A stretch of DNA of 64,000 nt, from NCBI GenBank assembly GCA_030698395.1, contig JAUYKW010000026.1, forward strand, positions 12,797 to 76,796, written 5' to 3'. Both the position numbers and the translations under genes were made by a program. Numbering within the stretch: position 1 is the first letter of the stretch; each line of letters begins with the position of its first letter. Origin of the DNA: a bacterium. GTDB lineage: Bacteria > Patescibacteriota > Patescibacteriia > UBA9570. Of this stretch, positions 6,791 to 50,337 are shown in pieces. Under the pieces are notes generated by a model. The model had not been told where the DNA came from. It did not search any database and was given only the letters and a program-made list of their open reading frames with translations.

Positions 6791-6968
6791 ATAATGATTA
6801 TAGCATAGTTATTAATTGTATCCGCATTCTAACCATTGACAAAACTGGTTTTTTAGTGTATGCTTCTTGCGCGTTAGTAGAGAAAGCTGCCATCCCGGTA
6901 GTAGTTCCTACCCAAGGAACTTGCTCTCTCCCCGAGAGTTTTTCTTCGAACCGCAGAAGGAAACACTG

Positions 6969-7238
6969 ATGCTGAAGTTGAATATGCTGTTCCGGAAGCT
7001 GATGGGCGCTGTGGCTTTTATCGGGTTCTTCCTGGTCGCCACCCTGGCGCCGGATGTCCCGGGTCACGAGATGTCCACTCTCGCCATGATCGTCGCCTAT
7101 GCGACTGGTCTGGCGATGATCATCATCCCCTTCGTCCTGAACTACTTCCTCGGCTGGGGATGGTTCGACGAGATGGAGAGCGACGACGAGATCGACACAA
7201 GGGAAGATCTCGAAACGAACGAGACCTGGTCGAAGTAG
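6969..7238 (+). CDS. GC-rich islet 1: small 2-TM membrane protein with acidic tail
   Basis: Promoter TTGACA(6836)-N17-TATGCT, SD AAGGA 7 nt before the ATG at 6969, GC-rich codons. Confidence 0.65.
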   Translation: MLKLNMLFRKLMGAVAFIGFFLVATLAPDVPGHEMSTLAMIVAYATGLAMIIIPFVLNYFLGWGWFDEMESDDEIDTREDLETNETWSK

Positions 7239-7360
7239 ACCGAACCCCCGTCCGAAAGGGCTGCCGCCTCTGGAGATCGCGCGATGCGATCGTTTGTACA
7301 GAGGCGGCGGCTACCCAACTTTTATATATTCCGATTCCCAATTTGGGAATTTTTTTATTT

Positions 7361-7676
7361 TCAATTTCGTGGATTGTTATAAATATATTTTCTTATTCTT
7401 TTTAATTCATATTCATTCCGAATTATTCTGTCATGAAAACGTGGTTGCCATGCGAAATGATTCCAATTATTTTTATTACCCCATCTTGTAACTGCAGATT
7501 TATATGATCGAACAATTGTTGATATGGAATTTGATTTTGGTGAAACATTAGAATAAAAATTTTATTTGTTACAGAATCGTTTCGTTTTTGGGTAGAGACG
7601 TTGCATGCAACGTCTCTACGACGATCATTAATCACAATGATCCCGTGTACATGATTTGGCATTATCACAAATGCTC
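7361..7676 (-). pseudogene. REP-associated tyrosine transposase (RAYT, Y1 HUH) remnant, 5'-truncated and frameshifted
   Basis: FVIMPNHVHGII in one frame; SISTIVRSYKSAVTR...WQPRFHDRIIRNEYELKRIRKYIYNNPRN* in another. Confidence 0.85.
7592..7619. repeat. GTAG-type REP palindrome inside the RAYT remnant
   Basis: GTAGAGACGTTGCATGCAACGTCTCTAC. Confidence 0.85.
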
Positions 7677-7852
7677 ATTAATTAATATATCAAAAAATAC
7701 ATTTTATACAAAAAACCGCTCATTATAATATGAAGCGATCTTTCAAAAAAATTCTGGAGGAAGCCCATGTGTATGTCATGCTGGGAATGAACCCACACGA
7801 TCATGTTCACACGAGCAATCCTCGTTACTGGTTCACTACCGCGGCTGCGACT

Positions 7853-8029
7853 CTACCAGAGGTACGTATTCTCAGTCCGAGACCGATCTTCTGCGTCAGG
7901 ATCATTCTCTTTCGCGTAATCGTCTGCCCAGTCCTGAGCCACAGCACCCAAGACCTTCGCGAAGAAAATCATGGTACCCAGGGACGCAACGCTAGCGCCA
8001 ACTTGCGCCAGCAACACAACAACAGTCAT
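7853..8029 (-). CDS. GC-rich islet 2: 58-aa single-TM protein with acidic tail
   Basis: SD GGAG 6 nt before the ATG at 8029; promoter TTGACA(8133-8128)-N16-TAAAAT. Confidence 0.5.
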   Translation of the reverse strand: MTVVVLLAQVGASVASLGTMIFFAKVLGAVAQDWADDYAKENDPDAEDRSRTENTYLW

Positions 8030-8365
8030 CTTCAGCTCCACAATACGCAGGTTCTGGAAGGAACTGCGGTAGGATTAACGAGGATTGGCTATGTAGCCAA
8101 AAAAAATTTTACTATATTAATAATATTTGTCAATAGTATTTTTTAGATAAAAATAAAAAACGACCGGTTCTGATTTCAGCAATGGTCGTGAAAGCTACAA
8201 ATTCAGTTGTTAAGTTTATGGGTACCTGTGACATTCAAAATGATTATCACAGGCGTTCCTCCTTGCAGCGTCAACCGCCAGAACGAACTAGCCCGTGGTG
8301 CATCAGTTTGAAGCCGAAATAAATCGAGCTCCTAACATCATTACACCACGAGCATCGTCCCAGCT

Positions 8366-8512
8366 TTACTCCTTCGGCTTCAGTCGATTTTCTTCGTACA
8401 CCGGATCGGTCCGGGCCCGATACATCATGAATGCTGCCAGACCGAGCGAGCCACCGATGAAAACGGTAATCAGGAGCAGAGTTAACAGGGGCGAGTTCTC
8501 GATGAATGTCAT
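8366..8512 (-). CDS. GC-rich islet 3: 48-aa single-TM protein
   Basis: GGAGG 6 nt before the ATG at 8512 (MTFIENSPLLTLLLITVFIGG...); promoter TTTACA-N17-TAAGGT at 8577-8549. Confidence 0.55.
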   Translation of the reverse strand: MTFIENSPLLTLLLITVFIGGSLGLAAFMMYRARTDPVYEENRLKPKE

Positions 8513-8613
8513 AACAGTCCTCCATAGACAGATATTATCGAGATGCACACCTTATTAAATAATCCGCTATCTGTAAAGTTCACAAGAATCATGAAGTGTC
8601 GTACAATAGTTAT

Positions 8614-9540
8614 ATGACTGTAAATAAATTAATTATAGAATTTCTAGAATACTTAGAAATTGAGCGCAATCGTTCTGCTCAAACTATTAAAAATTATGAT
8701 TATTACCTGAAAAGGTTCCTAAAACTTTCAAAAGTTAAAACTCCGCAAGATATTACTCAAGATAAGGTAAGAAAATATCGTCTACAATTAAACCGTATCA
8801 CCAACCCAAATACAGGAGAACCTCTTAAGAAAAAAACTCAAAATTATCACATGATTGCACTGCGAGCTTTTCTAAAGTATCTCGCTAAACGAGATATCAA
8901 ATCAATGGCAGCAGAAAAAATTGAATTAGCCAAACAAGAAGATCGTCAAATCGAATTTCTAGATGGTAGTGAACTTGAACGACTACTAGAAGCTCCACTT
9001 CAAGTAAAAGGTAATGAAATTATAAAATTACGAAATAAAGCAATCTTAGAACTGTTATTTTCTACAGGATTACGTGTTTCAGAATTAGCGCATTTAAAAA
9101 TTTCTGATATCAATTTAAAACGCGAAGAATTCTCTGTGCGTGGTAAAGGCGGTAAAGTAAGAATAGTATTTTTATCCGAACAAGCCAGATACTGGCTAAA
9201 AAAATATCTAGATAAAAGAACTGATATTTCGCCATACATGTTCGTTGCCCATGATCGCGCTCAATCAGCTCGTGAACAAACTGATAGCGCACCAATTACA
9301 TCACGATCCATTGAGCGTATGGTGAGTAAATATGCTAGAGTTGCCGGCATTATGAAAAAAATCACTCCACATACACTACGTCATAGTTATGCTACTGATC
9401 TACTACGTAATGGCGCAGATATTCGATCTGTTCAAAGTATGCTGGGTCACTCTTCTATTACCACAACTCAAGTTTATACTCACGTTACGGATCAACAATT
9501 AAAAAAGATCTATAAAAAATTCCACAACAAGAAGACATAG
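8614..9540 (+). CDS. XerC/XerD-family tyrosine recombinase
   Basis: TGLRVSEL, GKGGKVR, PHTLRHSYAT, LGHSSITTTQVYTHV; SAM-like N-terminal domain. Confidence 0.92.
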   Translation: MTVNKLIIEFLEYLEIERNRSAQTIKNYDYYLKRFLKLSKVKTPQDITQDKVRKYRLQLNRITNPNTGEPLKKKTQNYHMIALRAFLKYLAKRDIKSMAAEKIELAKQEDRQIEFLDGSELERLLEAPLQVKGNEIIKLRNKAILELLFSTGLRVSELAHLKISDINLKREEFSVRGKGGKVRIVFLSEQARYWLKKYLDKRTDISPYMFVAHDRAQSAREQTDSAPITSRSIERMVSKYARVAGIMKKITPHTLRHSYATDLLRNGADIRSVQSMLGHSSITTTQVYTHVTDQQLKKIYKKFHNKKT

Positions 9541-9560
9541 AAAATCGTAGCTTGTTTTCT

Positions 9561-11303
9561 TTATAAAGTTTGGAGATAACGCAAAGCTTTATTTCCACCC
9601 ACTTTAAACCTGCCATCACCAGAACTTTTTAACACATTGCTTTTTTGAAAAATCTTTACTCGCATTTGCCCCACTCCTGTTAAATCCAAAAGTAAACTTT
9701 TCGCACGTTGAGTATTCCAATATGCGTACATATCATAATGGCCTTTATGAAATCTATACAAATATGCATCCGCTATTTTAGACGCATATAATTCATCTAT
9801 ATAAACCGTACCCTCTTCCAAGCTACCGTCTGCATCATCCAAAATAAATGAATCGAATGTTAATGGATAATCTAACTTACCGTCGTTATTACCGCCCCAA
9901 CTTCCTTGATAATTCTTAAGTTGGATTGTATAGAACAACCATTCTTTTGGCATGTATCCTAAGTTGTATTGAAATGTTTCACCTTTATTATCAGTTATTC
10001 TAACTCTTAAAGTTGTATCATCATTATCTCCCTTTACTTTAAATTGCAAAGCTTTAATCCTTCCTGGCAACTGCTTCTGTAATGCAATCGGAGCATAACA
10101 ATTACCATTTCCTGTAAAATTATAGTACACCTTCATTGTGCCTCCATCATGATCATCTAGAGCTCCACTAGTACATTCAGTTTCAGAAAAATGCCATCCC
10201 TTGCTGGAAACAAAATTATCAATAATTCTATATTCTGGTAAATTCATTCCTTCAAAGTACTTTCTATTCAAATTACGTTGCATAAATTTGTAGGCATGAT
10301 ATGCAGGCTTAGGTTTATACTCATGATCCACTAATCCAAATTGAGATTCTAAATAGGACTCATCCGCAGAAGAATCTGTCATGGTGTACCAAAATACTTT
10401 TTTTACATTTGGAATAGATAGTGCAATAGTGTAAAATCGCATTAAATATTTAGCCTGCATATTCTCTGTGATACCTCCAGAATAAGTTGTCCATCCAGCT
10501 TCCGTAATCCAAATTGGTGTATCAGTAAAACCGTGTTTATTCATTACTGCCTTAACATTATAAATGTCTACATATAACGGATTCAATCCAGCACCAGTAC
10601 GCTCTGGCATATAGTTAAAATTTCCATCGATAGTTCGGTAAGGATGTATAGCCACAACTTCAATATCCGATTTATCATCTACTTCTGAAAAAAATTCATC
10701 TAACCAAACAGCATCTGCTCCTGATACACCACCCAAAATTACTTTTGCATCTGGATTGGCAGATTTGATTTCATCTACTGCTGAAGAATAATAGGTTGCG
10801 TACTCTTTCAAGCTACCTTTCCAAAAACCTTCATGATTTGGCTCATTCCAGATCTCCCATGTATCAACAGATCCAGCATAATGCTCTGCAACTTTACCAA
10901 CGTAATCTTTCCAAGCATCTAAATCTGGCGGATAAAATTCTGAATCTGATGCGCCCGGATTTGTTGATGCCCACGAACTACTATATGTTAATAATCCTAA
11001 CATCTCAATATTTTTGTCCTGATACGCTTGAAGCACATTATCATAAGTAGTCCAATTATAATTACCGTCAGATGGTTCTATAACATCCCAATTAAATTGC
11101 TCTCTACCCCACTGAGCTCCTGTAGCCTCTACCTTTCCCAATACTGTATCCCAATCCGCCTCATCAACTCGCTCTCGCAAATGAACATTCACGCCAAAAG
11201 CATCTTTGATTCTATCTGAATTCGCTGAAGCAATGCCTGGCATAAATAGTATGCTAAATAACATACCTATAAATACTGGGGCTATGATAGATTTTATGCG
11301 CAT
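9561..11303 (-). CDS. Secreted glycoside hydrolase (GH-A clan, GH39/GH5-like) with C-terminal carbohydrate-binding-like domain
   Basis: Signal peptide, WEIWNEPN acid/base, AIHPY, IWITEAGW nucleophile. Confidence 0.8.
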   Translation of the reverse strand: MRIKSIIAPVFIGMLFSILFMPGIASANSDRIKDAFGVNVHLRERVDEADWDTVLGKVEATGAQWGREQFNWDVIEPSDGNYNWTTYDNVLQAYQDKNIEMLGLLTYSSSWASTNPGASDSEFYPPDLDAWKDYVGKVAEHYAGSVDTWEIWNEPNHEGFWKGSLKEYATYYSSAVDEIKSANPDAKVILGGVSGADAVWLDEFFSEVDDKSDIEVVAIHPYRTIDGNFNYMPERTGAGLNPLYVDIYNVKAVMNKHGFTDTPIWITEAGWTTYSGGITENMQAKYLMRFYTIALSIPNVKKVFWYTMTDSSADESYLESQFGLVDHEYKPKPAYHAYKFMQRNLNRKYFEGMNLPEYRIIDNFVSSKGWHFSETECTSGALDDHDGGTMKVYYNFTGNGNCYAPIALQKQLPGRIKALQFKVKGDNDDTTLRVRITDNKGETFQYNLGYMPKEWLFYTIQLKNYQGSWGGNNDGKLDYPLTFDSFILDDADGSLEEGTVYIDELYASKIADAYLYRFHKGHYDMYAYWNTQRAKSLLLDLTGVGQMRVKIFQKSNVLKSSGDGRFKVGGNKALRYLQTL

Positions 11304-11307
11304 AATT

Positions 11308-12726
11308 TTAATCTTTATAAGCATTTAAGTCTGCTAATGCAGAACGATACTCCTTCATAATAGCACGAGCATCACTTTCTGACATCTCTTTAAAATCATC
11401 TACCAAAGCTTCTGCTCGGCTAGTTAAAAACTCAGCAGTATTTCGTTTTGGATCTTCCAATACTTCATCCAACAAACGATGGAGCACAACACCTATTTTT
11501 GCACCTGGCTTCATGCCATATTTCTTCATTAATTCATTGCCATCAATAGCTAACATGCTAGTTGATATTGGATCTTTCTGAACATGTTCTATTCTTTGCT
11601 CTAGCTCTATTAATTTGTAAGGTTTTTCTTTGTACACGCCAGACCCCATACGATCGGCAATTCTAACTGCCATTAAATCTTCTAAATGTTCCACACCAAC
11701 ACGCTGTAACAATCGTCTAACTCCAGCATCAGTAATTTCACCAACATTGTAATAAAACATATGATGTTTAACTAAATGAAAAATTCTCTTAATATCGTTA
11801 TTAGAAAAATTCATCCGTCGCATAATTTGGCGGGCAATTTTTGCACTAACATGTTCGTGTTGATAGAAAGTTGCATCCCTCCCAGATCCCTCCTTCACTT
11901 CAGGCTTGCCAATATCATGAAATAAAGAAGCAAGTCGTACCTGCCAATCATCAGAGGGACAAAACTGCATGGCTAACAAGTTATGAGAGAAAACAGTATA
12001 AATATGATGCAAGTTCTGTTCTACACCAACGCAATTTTCTAACTCTGGTATGATAATTGCTAATAACCCACTAGTATGGAGCTGCCAAAAAGCTTTGTAT
12101 GAATCATCCGTAGAAACCATTTTAATAATCTCGTCCCGAATACGCTCTTGAGAAACATGTTTGATAAGTTCTGTATTTTTTACAATTGCCTGCCAAGTTT
12201 CTGCTTCAATGGCAAAACCTAACTGGCTACTAAAACGAATCGCGCGCAACATTCTTAAAGCATCTTCTTGAAATCGTTCATTTGCATCACCAACTGCGCG
12301 GATTAATTCTTTATCAATATCCAAAATGCCGGCAAATTTATCAACCAGCTCTTCGCCATCATAAGCAAGTGCATTAATAGTGAAATCTCTCCGTTCTACA
12401 TCTTCTTGTAATGATACGCCAAACTTCACCTCATCTGGATGACGATGATCTGTATAACCACCCTCACTTCGATATGTGGTTATTTCAATTTCAGCCTTAC
12501 CAATTTTAACTGTTACCGTACCAAAAGTATTCAAATACAGTGTTTTTGGAAAAATCTTCTGTATTTCATCCGGCAAAGCATTAGTAGTAACATCCCAATC
12601 CTTTGGTGTCCGCTGCATAATTAGATCACGCAAACAACCACCTACTACATAGGCTTGATGCTCATTTTGGTGTAATATCTGTAACACCTGTTGAACTTCT
12701 TTCGGTAAGCTGATAGTATAATCCAT
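11308..12726 (-). CDS. cca: CCA tRNA nucleotidyltransferase/poly(A) polymerase family with HD domain
   Basis: VVGGCLRD..DWDVTT, RRDFTINA, EDALRMLRA, HDIGK. Confidence 0.9.
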   Translation of the reverse strand: MDYTISLPKEVQQVLQILHQNEHQAYVVGGCLRDLIMQRTPKDWDVTTNALPDEIQKIFPKTLYLNTFGTVTVKIGKAEIEITTYRSEGGYTDHRHPDEVKFGVSLQEDVERRDFTINALAYDGEELVDKFAGILDIDKELIRAVGDANERFQEDALRMLRAIRFSSQLGFAIEAETWQAIVKNTELIKHVSQERIRDEIIKMVSTDDSYKAFWQLHTSGLLAIIIPELENCVGVEQNLHHIYTVFSHNLLAMQFCPSDDWQVRLASLFHDIGKPEVKEGSGRDATFYQHEHVSAKIARQIMRRMNFSNNDIKRIFHLVKHHMFYYNVGEITDAGVRRLLQRVGVEHLEDLMAVRIADRMGSGVYKEKPYKLIELEQRIEHVQKDPISTSMLAIDGNELMKKYGMKPGAKIGVVLHRLLDEVLEDPKRNTAEFLTSRAEALVDDFKEMSESDARAIMKEYRSALADLNAYKD

Positions 12727-12749
12727 ACTGTTATTACAGTATCACGTCG

Positions 12750-12821
12750 GTCCCTGTAGTTCAACGGATAGAACAACGGCCTTCTAAGCCGTGGATGTAG
12801 GTTCGATTCCTGCCGGGGACA
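12750..12821 (+). tRNA. tRNA-Arg(TCT), CCA not encoded
   Basis: GTCCCTG/CGGGGAC acceptor stem, ACGGC-ctTCTaa-GCCGT anticodon arm, GTTCGA T-loop. Confidence 0.93.
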
Positions 12822-13032
12822 CAATTAGAAATCAACACAATATAAAATCTCTATTCAGAGCATTCAAAAAACTGGATAAAAAATGGCAAAATATTGCATA
12901 ATATCAATTCTTTTGTTAAAATATTTTAGCTCTTTTTATTGTAAATCAATCTGGAAACAGAAACTAGAAAAGGTTAAATTAAAGCATGATACGACTTATC
13001 GTGGTATAAATATAGTCAGACAAAACTTCTTA

Positions 13033-13244
13033 AGTTCGTAGCCGAACAGAAAGGCAATTGAATAATTCTCAATGGCAATTCCGTTCAGTTTCGAACTACT
13101 AAGTAAGATTCTGATTTTGACAGGGTAGCTTCTGAACAAGTTCTTGAAAACTCGAAATTGAACAGACAAGTAGCTAGTTAATAACACTAAGGCTTATCCG
13201 TTCAGTTTCGATCGATGTGAGAAACTGTTCGTGACAGGGTAGCT
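13033..13244 (+). repeat. Degenerate ~115-bp tandem duplication of a hairpin plus the tRNA-Met 5' end
   Basis: TCCGTTCAGTTTCGA at 13080 and 13197; TGACAGGGTAGCT at 13118 and 13232. Confidence 0.75.
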
Positions 13245-13309
13245 CAGCTGGTTAGAGCGCGGGACTCATAAGCCCGAGGTCGAGGGTTCAATCCCCTCTC
13301 CTGTCACCA
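13233..13309 (+). tRNA. tRNA with CAT anticodon (elongator Met or Ile2), CCA encoded
   Basis: GACAGGG/TCCTGTC stem, ctCATaa loop; the G1-C72 pair argues against an initiator tRNA. Confidence 0.9.
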
Positions 13310-13310
13310 T

Positions 13311-19333: not shown

Positions 19334-19353
19334 AAATGATTGTAAATAAATAA

Positions 19354-19381
19354 GTAGAGACATGCCATGGCATGTCTCTAC
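19354..19381. repeat. GTAG-type REP palindrome
   Basis: GTAGAGACATGCCATGGCATGTCTCTAC. Confidence 0.85.
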
Positions 19382-19680
19382 TTATTTTACGTTAGATCTT
19401 TTTAGGTAGCGTAATATTACAATCCTAGAAACACCCTCGCATATCCTACGGCTGTAGGATGTATACCAGCAAAGCCAGTTGCTAATGCTATAGCATCATC
19501 GTTGCCGTTATTATTCACATCTCCACATAAAATTAATGTTCCAAACAAACCATTTGAAATGGAAGATTTTTTATTTGACATTAATTTCGTTTTAAGCGAA
19601 TATTTAGCCACACTTTTTTCGAAATATGCCACCGCTTGTGTGATTCCTGTAAAGGAAACACCTAATGAGAGGACAGAGAG

Positions 19681-20040
19681 GTGATATTTTACAGAACATT
19701 GAGAGTCAGTGAAGCTACGGCTGCTTGGGCATACGGCATGGCCAGGCTCCGAACCCGTAAGCGAGAAACAGTCATCAATCCGAGGGACAACATCAGCACC
19801 TGCACGATCCACCGATCCGGACCGTCTAGTGCCGTCCTGATGCAGATCCCAAGGAGAAGAAACGCAACTCCGGTACGGTACCACCTGCACCTTCGAGTGT
19901 ACTCCCACCGTGGAGAACTGCTGGTGCGGAGTATTCTGGCCGACAGCGCCAGAAGCATTCCGAAAGTGAGGAGGAACAAGACCCGAGAACATCCTGCACC
20001 AATGGATTTCTCGGGTCGTGTTCTTATTTGCTATAATTAA
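19681..20040 (+). CDS. GC-rich islet 4: Arg-rich hypothetical protein (strand and end uncertain)
   Basis: TTGACA at 19575 (weak -10), AGGA before the GTG at 19681, C-ending codons; an antisense ORF 19689-19979 is an alternative. Confidence 0.35.
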   Translation: MIFYRTLRVSEATAAWAYGMARLRTRKRETVINPRDNISTCTIHRSGPSSAVLMQIPRRRNATPVRYHLHLRVYSHRGELLVRSILADSARSIPKVRRNKTREHPAPMDFSGRVLICYN

Positions 20041-22030: not shown

Positions 22031-22136
22031 GAGTATAACAGTATACCGTTCTTTTAGAGACTAATCAATTGTAATCTCTACAAGGACGGATCGAACATGA
22101 ACATGATAAATTATCAGTGGTTGTACGCCCTGGATC

Positions 22137-22547
22137 CTACTGTTTCATTCCCACCTGGATCGCATCAACCACATCCTGATGCATCAACGGTCCCTCCGCC
22201 AAGCCAGCATACACACCCTTGCAGAACTGAATCTCCAGTTCATGAAGAGCAACTCTCAAAATCAGGCTCAGCTCGTAATCATAGATCTGCGTCAGATCTG
22301 GGAATTGCGGGATACCCCATCGACTATCCAACTTCCCCGAGAATGGATTAGTGCCCGTCAGGTTGATATGATCCGTAATCACCATCAGCCGGTGTGGCTG
22401 AAAGGATGCATTGGTGAGTACCAACACCGAGGCACCCCACAACCGCATGACCCGTACTGCATGCACCACGACGTTCGCGAAATGACCTTCGTACAGATGC
22501 ACTCGACCACTGAGAACGACCACTGCGACATCATATGGCCTAATCAT
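22137..22547 (-). pseudogene. GC-rich islet 5: truncated purine nucleoside phosphorylase (PunA/XapA-type) fragment
   Basis: GRVHLYEG, LTNAS (deleted NAAGG), DHINLTGTNP, FPDL, GVY...GP; N- and C-terminal parts missing; promoter TTGACC-N17-TAATAT at 22624-22596. Confidence 0.75.
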
Positions 22548-22659
22548 TGTCTATCCCATCCTGTATTATTGATGAACATTAAGGTTAGCTCGATAATATT
22601 ATAGAAAAACTTAATTCAGGTCAATTTATTTTCCTAACCAATTCATGTACACTGTATTG

Positions 22660-23229
22660 ATGAGTAAATTTTTAGAAGACCTCCAAGCAGAAGGCCGGTG
22701 GCATCAATGGATGCGCAAATATAAAGATTTGATATTTCAACCTTTTGCCAAATTCTGTGTAGTATTAAAAATTTCGCCTTCAGCTGTTACGATAGCTGGT
22801 TTTATATTGGGAATACTTAGTATCTGGTTACTATTCATTAATTACTGGTACTTTGTGCTAGCTATGTTTTTAAGTTTATTTTTAGATGGCGTTGATGGTG
22901 CATTAGCTAGACACACAAATACAGTATCTAAATTTGGCAAAACTTTCGATTATTACGTTGATACTATATTAATGATCCTCATGTTTAGTGCTTTAACGTT
23001 TTGGTTAGGTGAACCATTATGGATAATTGGCCTTGATATTTATGGATTAGTTTTCTTATCGAACATGATAGCAGGTTCTCCTTTACGACCAGTTCCAGGC
23101 AGAACAGCAATGCTAATTCCTTGCATGTTAGGGTTACCGAAAGTTGGATTATTTCTACTATCTTTGTACGGTATAACTATGGCCATTGCTTTAACAAGGC
23201 ATTTACTAACAAAACAGACAAAAATGTAA
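22660..23229 (+). CDS. CDP-alcohol phosphatidyltransferase
   Basis: DGVDGALAR...SKFGKTFDYYVD motif. Confidence 0.88.
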   Translation: MSKFLEDLQAEGRWHQWMRKYKDLIFQPFAKFCVVLKISPSAVTIAGFILGILSIWLLFINYWYFVLAMFLSLFLDGVDGALARHTNTVSKFGKTFDYYVDTILMILMFSALTFWLGEPLWIIGLDIYGLVFLSNMIAGSPLRPVPGRTAMLIPCMLGLPKVGLFLLSLYGITMAIALTRHLLTKQTKM

Positions 23230-23253
23230 GGACATGCCATGGCGTGTCCTTAC
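23226..23253. repeat. REP-like palindrome overlapping two convergent stop codons
   Basis: GTAAGGACATGCCATGGCGTGTCCTTAC. Confidence 0.8.
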
Positions 23254-23813
23254 ATTTTTTGATAAATAAAGATTTTTTCTTTTTTATGATCAATTCTTTC
23301 TTTTGAAAAATACTTTTCTGCATCCTGTGGTAGTTCAAACATATTGCTTACAATTATACAACCAGGTTTACACTCTTTAATAAACTTTTCTGAAATTTTT
23401 GGCATCAATTTAGGAATCCAAAATCCAACAATTGCATCTGCATCGCTGATTGGATACATAAACATATCACCTTGTTCAATTTTTGGTTTACTTTTTGCTA
23501 ACAAAAATCGCAACCTTGCAATTCGTGCTAAATTAGAACTTATTTCCACTCCAAAAAACTCTGCATCTTTATACTTTTTCCTTAAGCCAGAAATTAAGAC
23601 ACCATCACCACAACCAAGATCAACAATATTTTTTTTATTTTTCAAAACTCCAGACTCAATAATCAAATTAACTACCTTTTGTTGAGTTGGTACAAATGGT
23701 AGGGGCCGATTATATAAAAAAATAATTGGTAGCACTCTCCATATTATTCCTAACAATGCTATTAGCAAAACACATTGTAATACGATATAAATCCAGATTA
23801 TTACGTTTGGCAT
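23250..23813 (-). CDS. Class I SAM-dependent methyltransferase, membrane-anchored
   Basis: PFVPT, VDLGCGDG, GVEIS, KPG..IVSNMF. Confidence 0.85.
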   Translation of the reverse strand: MPNVIIWIYIVLQCVLLIALLGIIWRVLPIIFLYNRPLPFVPTQQKVVNLIIESGVLKNKKNIVDLGCGDGVLISGLRKKYKDAEFFGVEISSNLARIARLRFLLAKSKPKIEQGDMFMYPISDADAIVGFWIPKLMPKISEKFIKECKPGCIIVSNMFELPQDAEKYFSKERIDHKKEKIFIYQKM

Positions 23814-23935
23814 AGTAATAGCATAACATACCTAAAAACATTGACTAGGTAATCCAAAACTAGTAATGTGTTGGGCACGATCTGTACATTTCACCGCCCA
23901 AATATTACAAAAGGGCACAAACCGAGAGGATTCTC

Positions 23936-25111
23936 ATGGGTACCCAGCACGTTAGTCGCAATGTCATCATCGTCGGCGATTCTCCCAACAAGAACGCTGG
24001 CGAACATCATCCCTTCACCATGGTAGACGGAGCCATCTACCACACTGACATGGTCGGCATCGATCCCCGAGCCAGCGCCGTCAACTACGGCCTCGCACGC
24101 ATCTCCGGCTATGGAGCCTGGCGCCGTCCCGAGGACGATACGCACTGGATGTTCCGCCCGGAAGACCACATGACGCGCATTCACCAGAACGCTTTGGCCA
24201 TTCCCGTTCTGGGAGATTTCCCGAGCACAAACATGCTCGTAGACTGGTCCATAACCAGTCTGGGCCTCGGCATCCCTCACCTCACGCGGGCCAAGGACGT
24301 CTACGGACGGACGCTAGTGGTGCAGGGTGGCGTCGCTCTCGGTGTTGGAACCCGCGGTCACGGCCACGTGATCAACTTCACGCGAGACCTGACAGAATAT
24401 GTTCCGGCTGAAGGGCTGGATCTGCTGTTCCCTGGCATGCTCTGTCGCCGACCCAACATTTTCATGGGTCGCCCCTTCGAAAAGGCGGCCGGCAACTACG
24501 ACTTGGCCCACTTCTGGAAAGGCGTCGTTGCCAAGGGACTAGGCTTCAACGAAATTCTGATGCTCAACTGGAACGGCACCGAAATCGCCGAGACCAGTGG
24601 TAGCATCCCGGTAGCCATCGTCCGCCTGTCGGACAAGAAAATTCAGATGCGTGTGCCACGCCTGGAATCCGGCCGACTGAATTCGATCACCACTGACACA
24701 CTCATCTACTTGGCCCATAAGCTGGGCTGGGAAGTAATCGTGAACCAACGCCTGACATTGGATCACCTGATCCATGCGGACGAACTCTGGGTGGCTGGTT
24801 CCTGGAGTGGTCTTGCTAGTGTGAGGAACATTAGCTTGGACCAACGCTGGATGCGTGAAGCACCCATCCTTCCACCTGAGATCTTCAGAGACGGAGTAGG
24901 GCCGGCATACAAAGCGTGGCTGGATGAAAATTTTCAGCCCGTGAATGCTCGCAAACTGGGCTGGACCCCTTCCTTCGCACCTGGTCCACTCGGTACTCAG
25001 CTCCGCGAACTCTACTGGGGCGTGGTGCGCAACCGCCCAGAATTCCGGCGCATCGATCGTCCCAGCAACTGGAATGTCAAGGTGAACCCGATCGTCCCAA
25101 ACACGGAATAA
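23936..25111 (+). CDS. GC-rich islet 6: divergent PLP fold-IV aminotransferase (IlvE-like)
   Basis: FRPEDHMTR, KAAGNY (catalytic Lys), GFNEILML, AETSGS, ADELWVAGS; promoter TTGACT(23841)-N17-TAATGT; SD GAGG. Confidence 0.8.
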   Translation: MGTQHVSRNVIIVGDSPNKNAGEHHPFTMVDGAIYHTDMVGIDPRASAVNYGLARISGYGAWRRPEDDTHWMFRPEDHMTRIHQNALAIPVLGDFPSTNMLVDWSITSLGLGIPHLTRAKDVYGRTLVVQGGVALGVGTRGHGHVINFTRDLTEYVPAEGLDLLFPGMLCRRPNIFMGRPFEKAAGNYDLAHFWKGVVAKGLGFNEILMLNWNGTEIAETSGSIPVAIVRLSDKKIQMRVPRLESGRLNSITTDTLIYLAHKLGWEVIVNQRLTLDHLIHADELWVAGSWSGLASVRNISLDQRWMREAPILPPEIFRDGVGPAYKAWLDENFQPVNARKLGWTPSFAPGPLGTQLRELYWGVVRNRPEFRRIDRPSNWNVKVNPIVPNTE

Positions 25112-25263
25112 AGATCTAGGAGGACACCTGGAGCCACGTACCAATGTACGTAGCAACAGGTGGGGGAAATTGTTATGCATGCATAACGTTTCCCCGCCTC
25201 CCCAATGGTTATTAGCTACTTAATAGCTATCGGTGAGAATCAAAATAACTTAAATAAAAAACA

Positions 25264-25291
25264 GTAGAGACATTCCATGGCATGTCTCTAC
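25264..25291. repeat. GTAG-type REP palindrome
   Basis: GTAGAGACATTCCATGGCATGTCTCTAC. Confidence 0.85.
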
Positions 25292-25330
25292 TGTTTATCA
25301 TGTCCCTACTTTATAAATTTCTCTATCTAA

Positions 25331-26392: not shown

Positions 26393-26580
26393 ATGTTTAT
26401 AAATCCAATATTTATCAATAAAATTACTAACAAATATACCCTATAATAGGGCTTTTGTCAATACCTAAAGCATAAATAGATAACTTCCGGCCAATAAGAA
26501 CCATATATGATTCGCATTGGGGGAAGACGGAACCAGCTGTTTGAGAGCGTAATTCCGTCTGCCGTGTCCTCCTCACGGCA

Positions 26581-26952
26581 TCATGCCGACTGTTGGCACG
26601 TGAACACGAAGTGCGTCCTGTCCCATTTCACTTCCAGTCTGGTACCGACCTGAATGTTCAGCTCATCTCGAATCCTGCTGGGAATCGTCAAACGACGCTG
26701 ACCGTCCGTATTTACGGGTTCACCAGCGAAGGCCTGAACTCCGTCCAGAATCCGACCAGCCGGCGTCTGGACCATCTCGATCCACTCGGACATAGGAAAC
26801 ACATGGAGTGAACCATCCCGGAACGAAGTCATGTAGAACGTTTCGTCCGGTCCGTACTCTCCGTACAGTGGATTCATGAAGTGATTGGCAAGCATCAGAC
26901 GACCCTTCTGATCGACTGTCGCAGTTCGGACACCAAAAATATAAACACACAT
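26581..26952 (-). CDS. GC-rich islet 7: MraZ-like tandem AbrB-fold DNA-binding protein
   Basis: FG..TATVDQKGRL and DGQRRLTIPSRIR repeats; GAGGAGG SD; promoter TTGACA-N17-TAATCT at 27078-27050. Confidence 0.7.
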   Translation of the reverse strand: MCVYIFGVRTATVDQKGRLMLANHFMNPLYGEYGPDETFYMTSFRDGSLHVFPMSEWIEMVQTPAGRILDGVQAFAGEPVNTDGQRRLTIPSRIRDELNIQVGTRLEVKWDRTHFVFTCQQSA

Positions 26953-27084
26953 CTTGCACATCCTCCTCTTCTGTTGGGTGCAGAAACTCCCAGGGGACGG
27001 GAGTAGTTCCAAGGGATAGGAACGTCGTTGATGCCACAGTGGCCCCTATAGATTAAAGACCATATACGGCCTTGTCAACACAAA

Positions 27085-44953: not shown

Positions 44954-44963
44954 GAGAATAAAT

Positions 44964-44993
44964 AAAGAGGTGTCTAAAATAGTCACCTCTTTT
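44964..44993 (+). terminator. Intrinsic terminator
   Basis: AAAGAGGTG...CACCTCTTTT. Confidence 0.6.
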
Positions 44994-45048
44994 GTTACCA
45001 AAAAAAATATCCTTGCATTAATTATCGAGGATCAGTATAATATATTTA

Positions 45049-45591
45049 ATGGCGACTAAACATAAAGAGTTCAAAAATAAAATAAAAGATCTACAAACGG
45101 AGGACTTCGAGCATCCAGAAGATTTTTTTAGTCGTGCGCATGAACTAAACGAATCCAGCGCTCAACCAGGAACTCTATATACAGACGAAACTCCACCATC
45201 TCAAAGATTAACCAATGCAGATGAAATGTGGATTGATGCTAGCAATGAAGGCTATGAAGGGCAACTTGCTATTGATGTTTACCAAGACGACAAATTTTTA
45301 TATGTAAAAGCAATCGTTGGCGGTGTACCACCAGATGATATTGAAATACACCTAAACAATGATATGTTAACAATCAAAGGAAAACGATCTCAGCCTGATA
45401 TGGGTATAGACCCAGAGAATTATTATATTCAAGAATGTTACTGGGGTGGTTTCTCTAGATCCGTAATCCTACCTGTAGATATCCAAAACGAACAAGTTGA
45501 AGCAATTACAGAGAATGGTGTACTCACAATTACTCTACCAAAATCAAATCGACCAAAAAACGCAAGAATTCCGATTAAGGAAATAAAGTAG
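45049..45591 (+). CDS. Hsp20/alpha-crystallin small heat-shock protein
   Basis: LAIDVYQ, LTIKGKR, ECYWGGFSRSVILP, NGVLTITLPK. Confidence 0.92.
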   Translation: MATKHKEFKNKIKDLQTEDFEHPEDFFSRAHELNESSAQPGTLYTDETPPSQRLTNADEMWIDASNEGYEGQLAIDVYQDDKFLYVKAIVGGVPPDDIEIHLNNDMLTIKGKRSQPDMGIDPENYYIQECYWGGFSRSVILPVDIQNEQVEAITENGVLTITLPKSNRPKNARIPIKEIK

Positions 45592-45747
45592 CAATCGTTT
45601 AGAACCAGGAGGGTACAAAGATTAATATTTTGTTAACGAGCGCTGTGTCGAAATGCATACTGCGCTATTTAATATTGACGTTTTTCCCGATTACTGGTAA
45701 ACAGGTCTAGTTACAAATAATAATAAATACAGAAAGTGTAAAAAATA

Positions 45748-47784
45748 ATGACAAATCAAGAATCAAAAAAGAAACAACCTCCAGTTGATGAGAAGAAATC
45801 TACAGAAAAAAAGGTTATTGAAGAACAACCTACAGAAAAAACATCTCCTGAAAAAAAGAAATTCCCTATCAAAAAAACTCTTGGCATTATCGCCGGAAGC
45901 ATCGTCGTGCTTATACTACTTATTATTGTTGGTTATTTTATTTATGAATACACCTACCAAGATAAAATTTATCCAGGCGTAACGTTAAACAATGAAGACA
46001 TGTCTGGAAAAACCTATTCAGACATAACTAGTGAAATAAATACCTATAAAGCATCATTAGATAATACAGGTTTAAATTTTAGCTACGAAGAAAAAGAATA
46101 TTCTATCAAACCACAAACAAAGGATGAAGAAAGTGGTGATATTATGTATTTAGTTAATATTAATACTGACGAAACAGCACAGGCAATATATGGTATAGGT
46201 AGAAGCGATGATGAGCAAACAAATCTAAAAAACAAAGTTAGTGCTTTATTTGGTGGGTATGACGTTACACCAAATTATTCTGTAGATAAAGAAACACTGA
46301 TAGCGTTATTGAGTAACGAATTCAGTGAATTCGAACAACCAGATGAAAATGCTAAACTTAGTTTTTCAGAAAACGGTGAAATACAAATTAGTGACCATAA
46401 AGATGGCTACACTTTTGATTGGGAATCATATCTGGATGAAGTGGAAAGCAATTTAAACAGTTTTGAACCTGTTAATATTAAGCTAGAACTTACTGCTAAT
46501 CCTGCACCAATTACTACGGAAACTGCCGAAAATATGCGTACCGAAATTGAGGCTATCTCAGATCTCTCTCCAATAACACTTACTTATGAAGATCAAACAT
46601 TTGAAATTGAAAGTGAAGAATTTAATTCTTGGTTAATGCTCACAGAAAATGGAGTTAGTTTTGATGAAGAACTTGTTGATTCATCACTCGATACTATTGC
46701 AGGTAAAATTGATATTCCCGTTAAAGAAGGACGCTTTAGCTTAGACATAGTAAACGATGTGGTGGAACTAACTCAATTCGAAGAAGGCGCTGATGGACTG
46801 GAAGTAAATATCGAAAAAACCATTACAGAAGTAAACGCATCAATTCTTGATAATAAACAAAGTAAATCAGAGCTTATAGTTGAAGTGACAACTCCCCGCG
46901 TAACACCAGGCAACCTAAACGAACTAGGAGTTAAAGAAATCTTAGGAACCGGAACTACTAGCTTTGCCGGAAGCCCATATAACCGTATTGGTAATATTCA
47001 AAAAGGTGCAGATTTATTAAATGGTTTGTTAATAGCCCCTGGAGAAACTTTCTCATTAATGAAATTACTATCACCAGTTGATATTGCTCATGGTTGGCTT
47101 TCAGAATTAGTTATTAAAGGAGATAAATTGGAAAAAGAAGCTGGCGGTGGGCTATGCCAGATTGGTACAACGGTTTTTAGAGCAACTATGATGTCTGGAT
47201 TAGAAGTAGTAGAACGACGTAATCATTCTTGGGCAGTATCATATTATAATTACAATGGAAAAGCTGGAGTTGATGCAACCATTTATGAACCATCTCCTGA
47301 TTATAAATTTAAAAATGATACTGAAAATTATATATTGATCCGTAGTAGAATAGAAGGTAGTGATATATACTTTGAATTCTGGGGTACATCTGATGGTAGA
47401 AAAGGTAGCTTTACTGAGCCTACAAACTACGGCTATGTATATCCTGGTCCAACCGAAGAAATAGTTGATCCTAGTTTACCGCCGGGTGCCAGAAATTGTC
47501 CTACTCATGCTTTTACCGGAGTTAGCGCATCATTTGATTATATTATTGAACGTCCAGATGGTTCCATAGACACAACTAATTACACTAGTGTATACAAATC
47601 ACGATCTGCCGTGTGTATGGTTGGTCCAGAAGCTGAAAAAACACCTACTGAAGAAACTACTCAAGATATTACTGAAACAGTCGACACAACGACTCCAGTT
47701 GTAACTCCGGAAGTTGATGTTCCTACCGAAACAACAAAAGATACAACTAAGAAAGATACGACAAAAAAGAAAAAGAAGAATTAA
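45748..47784 (+). CDS. VanW-family protein with PG-binding repeats
   Basis: IYPGV, PGETFS, GGGLCQIGTT, ERRNHS, GVDATI. Confidence 0.88.
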   Translation: MTNQESKKKQPPVDEKKSTEKKVIEEQPTEKTSPEKKKFPIKKTLGIIAGSIVVLILLIIVGYFIYEYTYQDKIYPGVTLNNEDMSGKTYSDITSEINTYKASLDNTGLNFSYEEKEYSIKPQTKDEESGDIMYLVNINTDETAQAIYGIGRSDDEQTNLKNKVSALFGGYDVTPNYSVDKETLIALLSNEFSEFEQPDENAKLSFSENGEIQISDHKDGYTFDWESYLDEVESNLNSFEPVNIKLELTANPAPITTETAENMRTEIEAISDLSPITLTYEDQTFEIESEEFNSWLMLTENGVSFDEELVDSSLDTIAGKIDIPVKEGRFSLDIVNDVVELTQFEEGADGLEVNIEKTITEVNASILDNKQSKSELIVEVTTPRVTPGNLNELGVKEILGTGTTSFAGSPYNRIGNIQKGADLLNGLLIAPGETFSLMKLLSPVDIAHGWLSELVIKGDKLEKEAGGGLCQIGTTVFRATMMSGLEVVERRNHSWAVSYYNYNGKAGVDATIYEPSPDYKFKNDTENYILIRSRIEGSDIYFEFWGTSDGRKGSFTEPTNYGYVYPGPTEEIVDPSLPPGARNCPTHAFTGVSASFDYIIERPDGSIDTTNYTSVYKSRSAVCMVGPEAEKTPTEETTQDITETVDTTTPVVTPEVDVPTETTKDTTKKDTTKKKKKN

Positions 47785-47816
47785 TCATAAACAAAATCGT
47801 ATCTACTATTTATTGT

Positions 47817-48000
47817 GTCGTTTTTAATTTTTAGTTTCAAAAATCCCCGAAGTCTGTAGGCAAGAGAACTTGCGGAAGGGATGCATAGAGCTTGCGCCTT
47901 ATATATCCTTCCTACACGTTCCCATGCTCGTCGTGCCTACAGGAGTCAGGGATTTTTGCTTTTAAATTTATGCCGATCGAATACAAATTATTCAAACGAC
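47817..48000 (-). ncRNA. Candidate ~184-nt rod-shaped ncRNA (6S-like?)
   Basis: Promoter TTGACA-N17-TATACT (48034-48006); nested stems; no ORF. Confidence 0.55.
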
Positions 48001-48256
48001 CAAATAGTATAGCGGACTCTTGCCTATTTGTCAAGAGGTATGATAAAGCCAAGCATCAATAATGTACGTATTTAAGCTAACATTAGCAAAATTCTATGTT
48101 TTTAAACTCTTTATAAGAACGTATCAATAAATACGAACTTGACTCATATCTAGTTATTCACTACGGTGATGGTCCGGTTGCACTCATAGCTATGTGTGCG
48201 ATGACTGGGCCTTGAAAAACACTCACGAAGCCACTGTGCTTCTAGCGGAGACGAAA

Positions 48257-48721
48257 TTGCAGACCGACGCCCCAACCCCTGACCTCACCCCCCGCCCTCA
48301 GAACTCTACGAAGACGCTCCCGACCGCACAGATCATCGCCGAAATCGTGATGGCTACTGGCGAAGACCGCAACCGCCTCGTGGTCATGCTGGCCATCGAG
48401 ATCGAGCTCCGGCGGATCGCGTACGAGCTGCTCACGCTCGCGCCGAACAAGATCCACGACGTCGGACAGCTGACCCCCTGCTTGGAACAGGCCGAAGCAC
48501 TGGACGAACTGATCCTCAAGCACCAGCTCGATGAGCGTGTGACCGACGTGATCGTACTGCTCGATGAGCGTGTGACCGACTCGTCAACCATCATCCGGGC
48601 CGCGAACATGCTCGCCCAGGCCGCGAACCGGATCGCGACGCAGGCCAAGGAGGTGGCGGATGATCTGCGCAAGGATCGCCTCAAGCCCCCCGAGCCGTTC
48701 GTAGCGATCAACGGCTGCTGA
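48257..48721 (+). CDS. GC-rich islet 8: helical orphan protein
   Basis: TTGACT(48139)-N17-TACGGT, GGAG before the TTG at 48257; internal 22-bp repeat. Confidence 0.65.
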   Translation: MQTDAPTPDLTPRPQNSTKTLPTAQIIAEIVMATGEDRNRLVVMLAIEIELRRIAYELLTLAPNKIHDVGQLTPCLEQAEALDELILKHQLDERVTDVIVLLDERVTDSSTIIRAANMLAQAANRIATQAKEVADDLRKDRLKPPEPFVAINGC

Positions 48722-48861
48722 CTCACAAGTCAACCGGACAGGAGGAGTTCCGGACGAAATCACACTAGCAGGCATGGTAGCAATACCCACCCGCAAAGAG
48801 ATCTCGTCCGGTACCCCGCACACAATCTTTTTCAACATCTTCAACTTATTTCATCTATTCC

Positions 48862-48886
48862 AAGACGCGATAAATCGCGTCTTTAC
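48862..48886 (-). repeat. REP-like palindrome
   Basis: GTAAAGACGCGATTTATCGCGTCTT on the minus strand. Confidence 0.7.
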
Positions 48887-49002
48887 TCTTTTTCAATACA
48901 TACTGCCCTTGACTTTAGGGTCTTTTTTTACTACGGTTGTAGCCTGGTCGCAAGCAAATGTAACCAGATTCCACTGAAACTCTCACCTCCAAAGGAGCAG
49001 AA

Positions 49003-49434
49003 ATGCGCCTTCCCTCCGCGGCAAGCACCATGCTTCGCTGTCACCGCCTTCTCGCCAAGATCGAGCTCACCGACCACAACCGCACCCTGCAGTTGTGTGC
49101 CATCCCGGCACTTCAGGTGGAGCTCTACCGCATTGCGTCTATGATGACGCGACGCGAAGATGTGAGACCTGAACAGGTTCACAAGATTCTCAAGGAGATT
49201 CGCGATATCGTGACTCTCGCCGAAACGCACCAAATGCTGATCGGCAATACGAATGAAATCGAAGATCTCCTCAACCAAGCTGAGGTCCGCGAACTGGCAT
49301 GGTCCGTTGTTCGGCACCTGGTCACCAATGCGATCGATGCATTGGACCTGTACGCTGATCAACTGGACGCCGACGTGGACGTCGAGCTACTGAGTATCGG
49401 CATGATGGCACTCGCTCCGAGTGTCCACGCCTGA
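49003..49434 (+). CDS. GC-rich islet 9: helical orphan protein
   Basis: TTGACT(48909)-N17-TACGGT, SD AAGGAG. Confidence 0.7.
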   Translation: MRLPSAASTMLRCHRLLAKIELTDHNRTLQLCAIPALQVELYRIASMMTRREDVRPEQVHKILKEIRDIVTLAETHQMLIGNTNEIEDLLNQAEVRELAWSVVRHLVTNAIDALDLYADQLDADVDVELLSIGMMALAPSVHA

Positions 49435-49746
49435 TCATGCTCAGCTATGGTAGCTCTCCTCCTCCAGAGGGCTAGGCTCCAAGCCATCCGGGGAAGAGTG
49501 TTCGCTGATTCTGCACCGTGCAGGAACATCGACGCTCTCCCCGGATCCTACCCCCCCTGTATATGTAAACCAACTAAATTGCATATAGAGGAAAGAAAAT
49601 AACCCAACAATCGGGTTATTTTTTATTACTAAAAAACATTATTATCAGGTCTCAAATGATTGACAATTACCCTATTTTACATTACGGTTATGGGGCTTTT
49701 CAGTTTGTAAACATCCCATTTCGGGACAATAGAGAGGACCAAATAG

Positions 49747-50166
49747 ATGACTGACCAGTACCTGTCGTGGGCGAGAAATGCTTTGCGGAGCACAGATGAG
49801 AACCTGCGTATCGCATCTACCGTGCCGAACCTGAACACGAACTTTGTCAGACGACTCCTCGTGAGTCGTAACCAGATCAACGTCTTCCTGACCGGTCCGC
49901 TCACGCAGCCGGGACTGGTGACGTTCGACCTGCACATCACCTGCCAGGAAGAACTGGCTGATCTGGTCGCCAAGTTGCTGCACATCTTCGAAGACATCGG
50001 CCACGAGGACATGCTCGAGGCGCAGTATGTGAGCGGCCTGCTCACTTCGGCCGTCGGGCAGACCACAGTCGCTTCAGCACTCTTGCAGAAGGCTCTGCGA
50101 GACGGCGAGGAGATCAAGAAGGTCGAGTCCATCGAAGGACCGTCGATCTGGTCCGCTGGTTGCTGA
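49747..50166 (+). CDS. GC-rich islet 10: helical orphan protein
   Basis: TTGACA(49660)-N17-TACGGT, SD GAGGA. Confidence 0.7.
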   Translation: MTDQYLSWARNALRSTDENLRIASTVPNLNTNFVRRLLVSRNQINVFLTGPLTQPGLVTFDLHITCQEELADLVAKLLHIFEDIGHEDMLEAQYVSGLLTSAVGQTTVASALLQKALRDGEEIKKVESIEGPSIWSAGC

Positions 50167-50337
50167 AAAGCGCCACCCGCGGAGGACGGGAATCCAGGGT
50201 GGAACGACTGCAACAAGCATCGTTCTCCCTGGCCCCACCCACACTTGAAATAATTCCTCTTTTTATCTATAATATATTAACAGCGCGCCACTTGGGCGCT
50301 TTTAATTTCATAATTATTCACTTAATTAAAAGTACAT

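Follow-up and report, generated by a model that had tools for sequence, protein, structure and literature searches.

Compositionally atypical genes that have been laterally transferred drift toward the composition of the genome that carries them, a process termed Lawrence-Ochman amelioration. Phage morons are autonomous units of promoter, Shine-Dalgarno (SD) sequence, gene and terminator that are situated between conserved genes and often carry host-acting or anti-defence cargo. Genomes of the Bacteroidota are SD-less with a retained anti-SD sequence, an SD being found at few genes such as rpsU. Some mRNAs are protected by 3' stem-loops or U-less terminators, and the mRNAs of type I toxins fold back 5' to 3'. 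Likenesses to these systems were identified for ten GC-rich islets on a 64,000 nt stretch (the window) of contig JAUYKW010000026.1, belonging to a Patescibacteria genome of 1.32 Mb that is 97% complete (G000). Approximately 40 genes of the islet type were found in this genome, ten of them being the islets of the window, and together they form a class that is real, non-random and lineage-wide, and that fails the tests for recently acquired islets, cassettes, diversity-generating retroelements and morons. The class has a format with definite bounds, which persists at the same sites and is sorted by cargo. Tentatively, and short of an even chance, we favour reading the islets as stabilised mRNAs for host-directed proteins that would be read by the cell's own ribosomes.

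As with atypical genomic islets, these are single genes of odd composition with a patchy occurrence and empty sites in relatives. However, they are GC-richer and not AT-richer, have no donor and few intermediates, and their same-site homologs of ~30% identity stay GC-rich, while patchy type I HsdM genes lack the format. With morons they share an own promoter, SD and 3' stem between conserved genes, but they are placed among the housekeeping genes of a cellular chromosome, where neither phage context nor phage homologs were identified, and differ in a persistent GC-rich dialect and, in this order, in a long U-less 3' hairpin with a C-rich tail. Similarly to the Bacteroidota, core starts are A/U-rich and SD-less, the anti-SD is kept and the set of SD genes is small; unlike in that phylum, this set consists of ~40 fast-changing accessory units with their own composition rather than an autoregulated ribosomal protein. 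Long 3' hairpins and anti-SD-like tails recall stem-protected and type I toxin mRNAs, although the tails do not pair specifically with their own SD or leader.

The initial annotation had described the ten islets from hand-counted G+C, and the counts proved exact for five 60-nt lines (40, 41, 40, 21 and 14 of 60). The islets were likewise confirmed, having a GC content of 0.526-0.608 compared to 0.349 for the remaining window, in which 300-nt windows gave a standard deviation of 0.036 and a maximum of 0.50. Of the genome-wide checks it had called for, of GC and of G+C at third codon positions (GC3), the former was performed by two-state segmentation, which recovered all ten islets among 64 segments, with islets 8 and 9 merged as one. 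Some of the 64 were rRNA, tRNA or low-complexity core genes and were removed. Curation resulted in 42 coding units, 40 of which were used; islet 4 and one unit without a credible frame were dropped. The islets of the window consist of the following features (CDS, coding sequence; UTR, untranslated region).

Islet 1, 6836..7319, plus strand: promoter 6836-6864, leader, SD, CDS 6969-7238, 3' hairpin 7259-7312 and short C-rich tail; product of 89 aa with two hydrophobic segments, GC3 0.83.
Islet 2, 7755..8133, minus strand: promoter 8133-8106, SD, CDS 7853-8029 and 3' hairpin 7757-7823; product of 58 aa with one hydrophobic segment.
Islet 3, 8246..8577, minus strand: promoter 8577-8549, SD, CDS 8366-8512 and structured 3' UTR 8251-8361; product of 48 aa with one hydrophobic segment.
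Islet 4, 19575..20025, plus strand: -35 element at 19575, weak -10, SD, CDS 19681-19969 and 3' hairpin 19972-20025.
Islet 5, 22080..22624, minus strand: promoter 22624-22598, SD, CDS 22137-22547 and weak 3' stem 22089-22136; product of 136 aa, a shortened purine nucleoside phosphorylase (PNP) homolog.
Islet 6, 23841..25205, plus strand: promoter 23841-23869, SD, CDS 23936-25111, post-stop GGAGG, two 3' hairpins 25119-25201 and C-rich tail; product of 391 aa, an IlvE-like class IV aminotransferase below family cut-offs.
Islet 7, 26515..27078, minus strand: promoter 27078-27050, SD, CDS 26581-26952, 3' hairpins 26525-26579 and C-rich tail; product of 123 aa, a diverged second MraZ-like protein, the core mraZ being located elsewhere.
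Islet 8, 48139..48822, plus strand: promoter 48139-48167, CDS starting at 48257 (with SD) or 48194 and ending at 48721, 3' hairpin 48741-48819; orphan product.
Islet 9, 48909..49557, plus strand: promoter 48909-48937, SD, CDS 49003-49434, long 3' hairpin and C7 tail; orphan product of 143 aa.
Islet 10, 49660..50243, plus strand: promoter 49660-49688, SD, CDS 49747-50166, 3' hairpin 50184-50240 and C-rich tail; orphan product of 139 aa, for which an atlas search gave a TPR-like lead only (the same search gave no match for the islet 1 protein).

A promoter of the form TT[GT]AC-N15-18-TAnnnT was found where it had been predicted for nine of the ten islets (6836, 8133, 8577, 22624, 23841, 27078, 48139, 48909 and 49660), while no matching -10 was found for islet 4, whose -10 had been called weak. 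All ten chosen starts were preceded by an SD (-5.6 to -11.9 kcal/mol) and all ten 3' UTRs fold into stems, as had also been proposed. Multi-gene blocks had been reported absent, but two-gene operons exist among units elsewhere in the genome. The claim that the GC-rich span equals a transcript is at its clearest in the window; genome-wide, and with transcript ends predicted from sequence, only 10 of the 27 units with a scored promoter have a GC edge that is no more than 10 nt away from the predicted start site. Of 37 islet starts, 12 have a consensus promoter within 150 nt, as do 49 of the 382 leading core genes, and therefore both classes use the same promoter type. Known RNA families in the window were limited to four tRNAs.

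Contiguity was confirmed with contigs of run X1 (possibly the source run), which span the junctions of islets 1, 2, 4, 5 and 6 at a flat depth of ~10-11, and with X2, a further sample from that study, in which the 5' junctions are bridged for islets 1, 5 and 6; this second-sample confirmation does not extend to islets 3, 7, 8, 9 and 10. Chimeric assembly was rejected for the covered islets, as contigs cross their junctions at even depth. Nor are islets enriched at contig ends in G000 (5 of 40 compared to 3.8 expected). Islet 4 has no intact frame, its GC3-rich frame switching near position 19850, and the X1 contig covers it without a gap. In this coding region (19681-19969) the second half reads as a Cys-rich peptide, and the switch may represent either a pseudogene or a programmed shift. 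Islets 8, 9 and 10, whose genes are unrelated, share one unusual -10 hexamer (positions 48162, 48932 and 49683), possibly reflecting co-regulation or an old duplication.

The islet genes differ from the remainder of the genome in translation initiation. With the SD defined as anti-SD pairing of at least -4.4 kcal/mol in strength, one was found at the first in-frame ATG of 33 of 40 islet genes, compared to 71 of 1015 core genes; the first in-frame ATG was used in this retest because the original choice of start carried an SD bonus. The background at internal Met codons is 21% for islet and 15% for core genes and, as the latter exceeds the rate at core starts, these are depleted of SD sequences. 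A blind longest open reading frame (ORF) call gave the same dichotomy, with an SD in 22 of 31 genes of GC3 of at least 0.55 and in 63 of 984 genes of GC3 below 0.30. EF-Tu, the ribosomal proteins and GroEL have no SD and a GC3 near 0.2, and this core-type format is also that of seven pilins, a methyltransferase and Fic.

These data bear on which ribosomes would read the islet messages. A close rival to translation by the cell's own ribosomes, possible if somewhat doubtful, is that the epibiont passes mRNA (less likely DNA) into its attached host, where the format would be readable and durable. SD-less core messages would stay silent there, and the format would act as a language for a foreign cytoplasm. 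That genes expressed at a high level in the cell itself have no SD and no codon bias is consistent with this, as is the core of the GC-rich relative G081 (63% GC), which is mostly SD-less (33% with an SD). Since the G081 core is such, the SD is not a mere compensation for GC. On the other side, the anti-SD of the 16S rRNA is intact in G000, 28 of 30 Patescibacteria genomes retain its CCUCC core and core CDSs avoid GGAGG (0.61 of expectation), so that the cell's own ribosomes can read an SD; a loss of the anti-SD was not observed. A codon barrier was rejected, there being no codon without a reader in G000: its 40 tRNAs read every codon with wobble, and both RF1 and RF2 are present. In two families of the class (G197 and G034), two positions of the 16S tail were observed to deviate from the usual anti-SD. 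Four of five SD-led genes of G197 read GGAGG and none GGAGA, compared to 13:12 in G000, which weakly favours host ribosomes, but the altered tail still pairs through G.U wobble. In a check for TGA stops in SD-class genes of lineages with genetic code 25, the pattern was found in 0 of 401 genomes; 15 of 18 metagenome loci were of code 25 (~113 kb), with no GC-rich SD-led unit there.

GC3 was found to be ~0.7 for islet genes compared to 0.24 for core genes, and is bimodal: among genes of at least 150 aa, 909 lie below 0.40, four at 0.40-0.50 and 23 above 0.50. The bias is not of the 'highly expressed gene' type, as it is not shared with ribosomal proteins, whose operon shows no codon bias and no GC shift. 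At synonymous sites of islets, the choice between C and T is influenced by the bases of the next codon (+1.0 for A, +0.5 for T) as strongly as by those of its own codon, and for this reason does not represent codon-anticodon tuning, which argues against adaptation to host ribosomes. Runs of at least four A/T occur at 0.66 of expectation in islets, compared to 0.99 in core genes and 0.86-1.13 in GC-rich cores. One codon dialect is common to the islets of eight genomes (root mean square distance 0.07-0.16) and differs from the core of the GC3-matched relative G174 (0.16-0.26), a point in favour of translation in a host, but it also resembles the core usage of G081 (0.09-0.13).

A regime acting on DNA and bounded by the transcription unit is a rather improbable source of this composition. 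Such a regime could consist of transcription-linked GC-biased mutation, repair or gene conversion, or of escape from an A/T-binding nucleoid or silencing protein, with the SD following as a repair of initiation. It would account for the strand-symmetric loss of TpA and A/T runs, for context effects across codon borders, for fast protein change and for unpaired UTR bases being GC-richer in islets (0.36-0.41) than core upstream DNA (~0.25). It does not agree with the unshifted ribosomal protein operon or with the depletion of GC runs in islets as well (0.78-0.87), and leaves unexplained the 3' hairpins, the sorting of cargo and the SD-led genes of background GC in G197.

Comparison with related genomes, also proposed at the outset, showed that the same sites hold GC-rich SD-led genes in some genomes and are empty in others. 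At the site of islet 1, G002 has a GC-rich SD-led homolog (30% identity, with flanks 65-77% identical) and G006 a different GC-rich SD-led gene, the site being empty in G001, G004 and G007. Where islets 8-10 are situated, upstream of NIF3, G006 was found to carry three unrelated genes that are GC-rich and SD-led, while G001 has none. G002 encodes a homolog of islet 5 with 258 aa, likewise GC-rich and SD-led. The IlvE-like homologs of islet 6 are GC-rich in G006, G010, G016 and G024 (GC3 0.78-0.89); the ordinary ilvE genes of G004, G006 and G009 have background GC. In G006 and G010 the IlvE-like gene adjoins the same methyltransferase as islet 6, at 28% identity and GC3 of 0.79-0.83, and its 3' UTR is visibly conserved between these two genomes, their proteins being 42% identical. 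For islet 7, no homolog was found in the 31 other genomes of the order with its protein as the query. Over a range of 28-30% identity, same-site genes have a GC3 of 0.68-0.90 where that of the core is 0.24-0.45. As these same-site homologs are all GC-rich and SD-led, the format is maintained and is not due to recent import, and from the same comparisons it follows that sites and format persist, with turnover of cargo. On 418 kb of G002, 11 of 15 GC3 outliers were SD-led, compared to 7% of other genes. Among 14 stretches of 100-200 kb from other lineages, five held 16 outliers, 12 of them SD-led and most with an ordinary terminator at the end, and nine held none.

Several contigs of G002 start at an islet. 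Several contigs of this genome also begin with one common short AT-rich sequence that directly follows different GC-rich genes, and islet 3' ends may therefore carry a repeat or an insertion element.

Flexible cassettes could also account for a patchy distribution, for empty sites and for the occupation of one site by unrelated genes. They would be drawn from a pool that is GC-rich and uses the SD, be it of hosts, of phages or of GC-rich Patescibacteria, and be recombined through flanking core genes faster than amelioration, a reading that is improbable. Decayed units do exist (islets 4 and 5), and single-gene exchange among Patescibacteria is documented in the passages of PMC12455944 that concern it. 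The LOG islet has its best match at 54% identity, and proteins of Myxococcota and other non-Patescibacteria resemble it more (50-54%) than does the second LOG of this genome (39%); no LOG relatives were found in a metagenome scan. However, no close donor was identified for the two of 40 proteins searched, the IlvE-like protein having only two relatives (58% and 54%) among the candidates scored, with no phage relatives in a close-relative search. No plasmid match was found for islets 8-10, and PHROGs were matched by only 4 of 36 proteins, mostly via general enzyme families. Also contrary to a pool are the near-empty GC3 gap (4 of 936 genes of at least 150 aa at 0.40-0.50) and the GC richness of the 28-30% identical same-site homologs in every genome. 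Patchy HsdM genes provided a control, comprising 15 of the 30 type I HsdM matches: their GC3 ranges from 0.25 to 0.84, and none of the 15 has an SD at the first ATG, a number that rises to 3 of 15 when the first three ATGs are considered. As these patchy genes are SD-less whatever their GC3, patchiness or foreignness does not confer the format.

Highly improbable, and largely refuted, is RNA-templated capture or an integron-like cassette origin, including A-to-N rewriting of the diversity-generating retroelement type. Such an origin had been put forward on account of the islet edges, which lie near predicted transcript ends; a lower frequency of A than T at fourfold sites of the sense strand (0.13 compared to 0.20) and a reverse transcriptase in G016 and G024 are compatible with it. 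RVT_1 was not found in G000 or in its three islet-bearing family relatives G002, G006 and G010 (the four being 90-97% complete), an attC-like pattern was present in 1 of 40 units, units carry their own promoters and no template repeat was found among the 20 largest repeat families in the window. Integrases had been reported absent from the window, yet a Xer-type recombinase adjoins islet 3; it belongs to the core, occurring in 28 of the 32 genomes of the order, and scores 142 against the TIGR02249 integron-integrase cut-off of 265. No att sites, flanking repeats or target-site duplications were detected, the longest shared flanking words being 5-8 nt and mostly A/T-rich, and no UTR sequence was shared among the 40 units beyond chance matches of 15-18 nt. 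Together with the bimodal GC3, the SD dichotomy and same-site maintenance, this supports the original view of a distinct mRNA class rather than a DNA island.

Folding of the 3' UTR was found to be strong (mean z -3.6, n=35) and that of the coding region slight (z -0.62±0.13 for islets and -0.01±0.09 for core genes). The 5' leader is hardly folded (mean z -0.5, n=37), contradicting the structured leader of the initial annotation, whose suggestion of selection for stability thus agrees with the 3' end and mildly with the coding region, but not with the leader. A T4 run directly follows the GC edge in only 8 of 36 units, and a canonical terminator downstream of the edge was rejected as a rule (7 of 35 units compared to 82 of 278 core ends). 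Tails are instead C-rich, with CCCC in 11 units (2.1 expected), and anti-SD-like in 62% of units compared to 32% of CDS windows. A post-stop SD-like motif is enriched (23 of 36 compared to 12, with a shuffle maximum of 22) and often closes a stem with the tail. The hairpin with C-rich tail recurs in G002, G006, G016 and G024. Rho and RNase E/G were not found in G000.

Two candidate 3' structures were rejected. A CCA-ended, tRNA-like or levivirus-like end was not adopted as most units have no CCCAC (6 of 36 tails, 0.6 expected); not all 5' ends begin with GGG, and the calling of the edge is biased towards C. A 5'-3' panhandle or sequestration of the SD, noticed by eye, was rejected by the rank of own versus other duplexes (mean 0.49-0.54, 32 monocistronic units), which shows no specific 5'-3' pairing. 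This and the lack of a packaging sequence common to the 40 units weigh against delivery of mRNA to host ribosomes. At G000:C1:37998-39374, two adjoining islets with unrelated coding parts were observed to have near-identical 3' UTRs, which suggests that the 3' end is reused as a module.

Named cargo of the class comprises IlvE-, PurN-, PNP-, LOG-, MgtE- and aminotransferase-like proteins, a receiver domain, M23/FG-GAP proteins and the second MraZ-like protein, several of which have a core-type paralog in G000. The small membrane proteins, orphans, MraZ-like and IlvE-like proteins listed originally were all found, with the amendment that islet 5 encodes the shortened PNP homolog. A further unit was identified outside the window.

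Csx3/Csx15 operon, G000:C25:10050-11456, minus strand: GC-rich SD-led two-gene unit encoding a tandem Csx3-like protein and a membrane-anchored Csx15.

The Csx15 scores 40.3 bits with NF040560 (cut-off 35) and the Csx3-like protein 36.7 with PF09620 (cut-off 21). In the parts of two studies used here, Csx3 and Csx15 are described as ring nucleases that usually occur with Cas10, Csx15 mostly so, and main-text passages of both contain no Patescibacteria (bioRxiv 2026.10.26.761840; bioRxiv 2024.09.24.614671). In G000, neither a RAMP nor a SMODS match was found. Csx3 is present in 19 of 401 genomes of the class. In the 18 other than G000, 14 have an SD-led gene when judged at the first start and 16 when judged at the best start (two starts are ambiguous and one gene is cut by a contig end), and RAMP and SMODS were each found in 0 of 18, Cas10 itself and other synthases not having been searched for. 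A scan of viruses found no Csx3 relatives. An SD also precedes three AcrIII-1-like genes, at the first ATG in two cases and at a later one in the third. The Csx3 genes of the class were often observed to be fused to, or situated 3' of, a P-loop ATPase in SD-led units, and no cas genes adjoin them over a distance of 1.5 kb.

The format thus goes with cargo that is predicted to lack a substrate at home. The likeness to viral anti-CRISPR ring nucleases (AcrIII-1/DUF1874; Crn3/Csx3, Csx15) lies in homologs without a detected cyclic-oligonucleotide synthase, which would be as expected of a parasite muting the alarms of its host; unlike those, the carrier is a cell and not a virus, and its homologs are predicted ring nucleases. 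All of the cargo-sorting evidence (Csx3, AcrIII-1-like genes, HsdM, no RAMP or SMODS) is shared with host translation, and the sorting favours action in the host. Transfer of mRNA would in addition solve the export of membrane and signal-less cargo. A tube or conduit between a Saccharibacterium and its host has been imaged (passages of PMC11880426), and hosts mount defences against epibionts (PMC13622651), both for other lineages. Conversely, secreted M23/FG-GAP and vWA proteins would be sensible on the cell's own surface.

According to the reading we prefer, translation by the cell's own ribosomes, the islets would be a second, selection-maintained class of one- or two-gene units with sigma70-type promoters. 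Their mRNA would be built to last, by the purging of A/T runs and UpA and by the long 3' hairpin and C-rich tail, stability probably being what is selected. Translation would start via the SD, proposed to be due to the lack of the A/U-rich landing zone of core genes. The messages may be read most likely from a stored pool on host contact, with the proteins then acting at or in the host. The cargo would be fast-turning and host-directed, comprising anti-cyclic-oligonucleotide enzymes, diverged extra metabolic enzymes, a division regulator and small membrane proteins.

A number of observations weigh against this reading. No Pfam family was found in 22 of 29 islet proteins, and therefore a host-directed role rests on few families. 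The Csx3-like protein does not reach the TIGR02579 cut-off (35 compared to 55 bits) and its match to a solved Csx3 in PDB is weak (E 0.08), the Csx3 gene of G197 is SD-like but not GC-rich, and Csx3-ATPase modules could serve a system of the cell itself. Signal-less and integral-membrane cargo would need a delivery route. The loss of A/T runs is symmetric between strands (TAA 0.44, TTA 0.51; AAA 0.77, TTT 0.84) and so does not single out RNA, and the units of other lineages have ordinary U-tailed terminators at their ends. Related genomes do not constitute independent samples, and expression, half-life, timing and delivery are predictions.

The majority of accessory genes in Patescibacteria are orphans. 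Should the SD/GC format be a mark of host-directed genes, a sequence filter would list candidate effectors for each genome that has the class (~40 here); if this is true, the list includes ring nucleases, which suggests that epibionts suppress cyclic-oligonucleotide immunity of the host. It is possible, though somewhat unlikely, that one chromosome holds two dialects, with SD-less AT-rich genes for the cell's ribosomes and nuclease-hardened SD mRNAs passed to the host as effectors that are recognisable genome-wide by format. Should host ribosomes read the messages, they would produce anti-defence and metabolic enzymes, a division regulator and membrane proteins, and mRNA delivery from bacterium to bacterium would be a parasitic strategy. 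Even on a cautious reading, GC-based calls of 'recent transfer' or 'contamination' misread these genes. Literature searches, mostly of open papers with supplements outside their scope, found no description of a class with this SD/GC split: 'codon' and 'ribosome binding' are absent from the passages of PMC12455944 on single-gene exchange in Patescibacteria, and the portions of PMC6851277 considered contain nothing on such a class. New here are the tested maintenance, the nucleotide-level bias, the 3' architecture at the level of the order and the controlled link to ring-nuclease cargo.

Other features were observed in the genome. Contig G000:C21 (7.8 kb) appears phage-like, with a very long ORF and capsid-like genes that have an SD at low GC3, and may be either a prophage or mis-binned. 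At 62560-62751 of the window, tandem 72-nt repeats encode a short histone-like ORF rich in Lys, Pro and Ala. A 35-nt palindromic repeat resembling repetitive extragenic palindromic (REP) elements was identified in four intergenic copies in the window (7586-7620, 19348-19382, 23220-23254 and 25258-25292), with 16 matches to its core words genome-wide on both strands.

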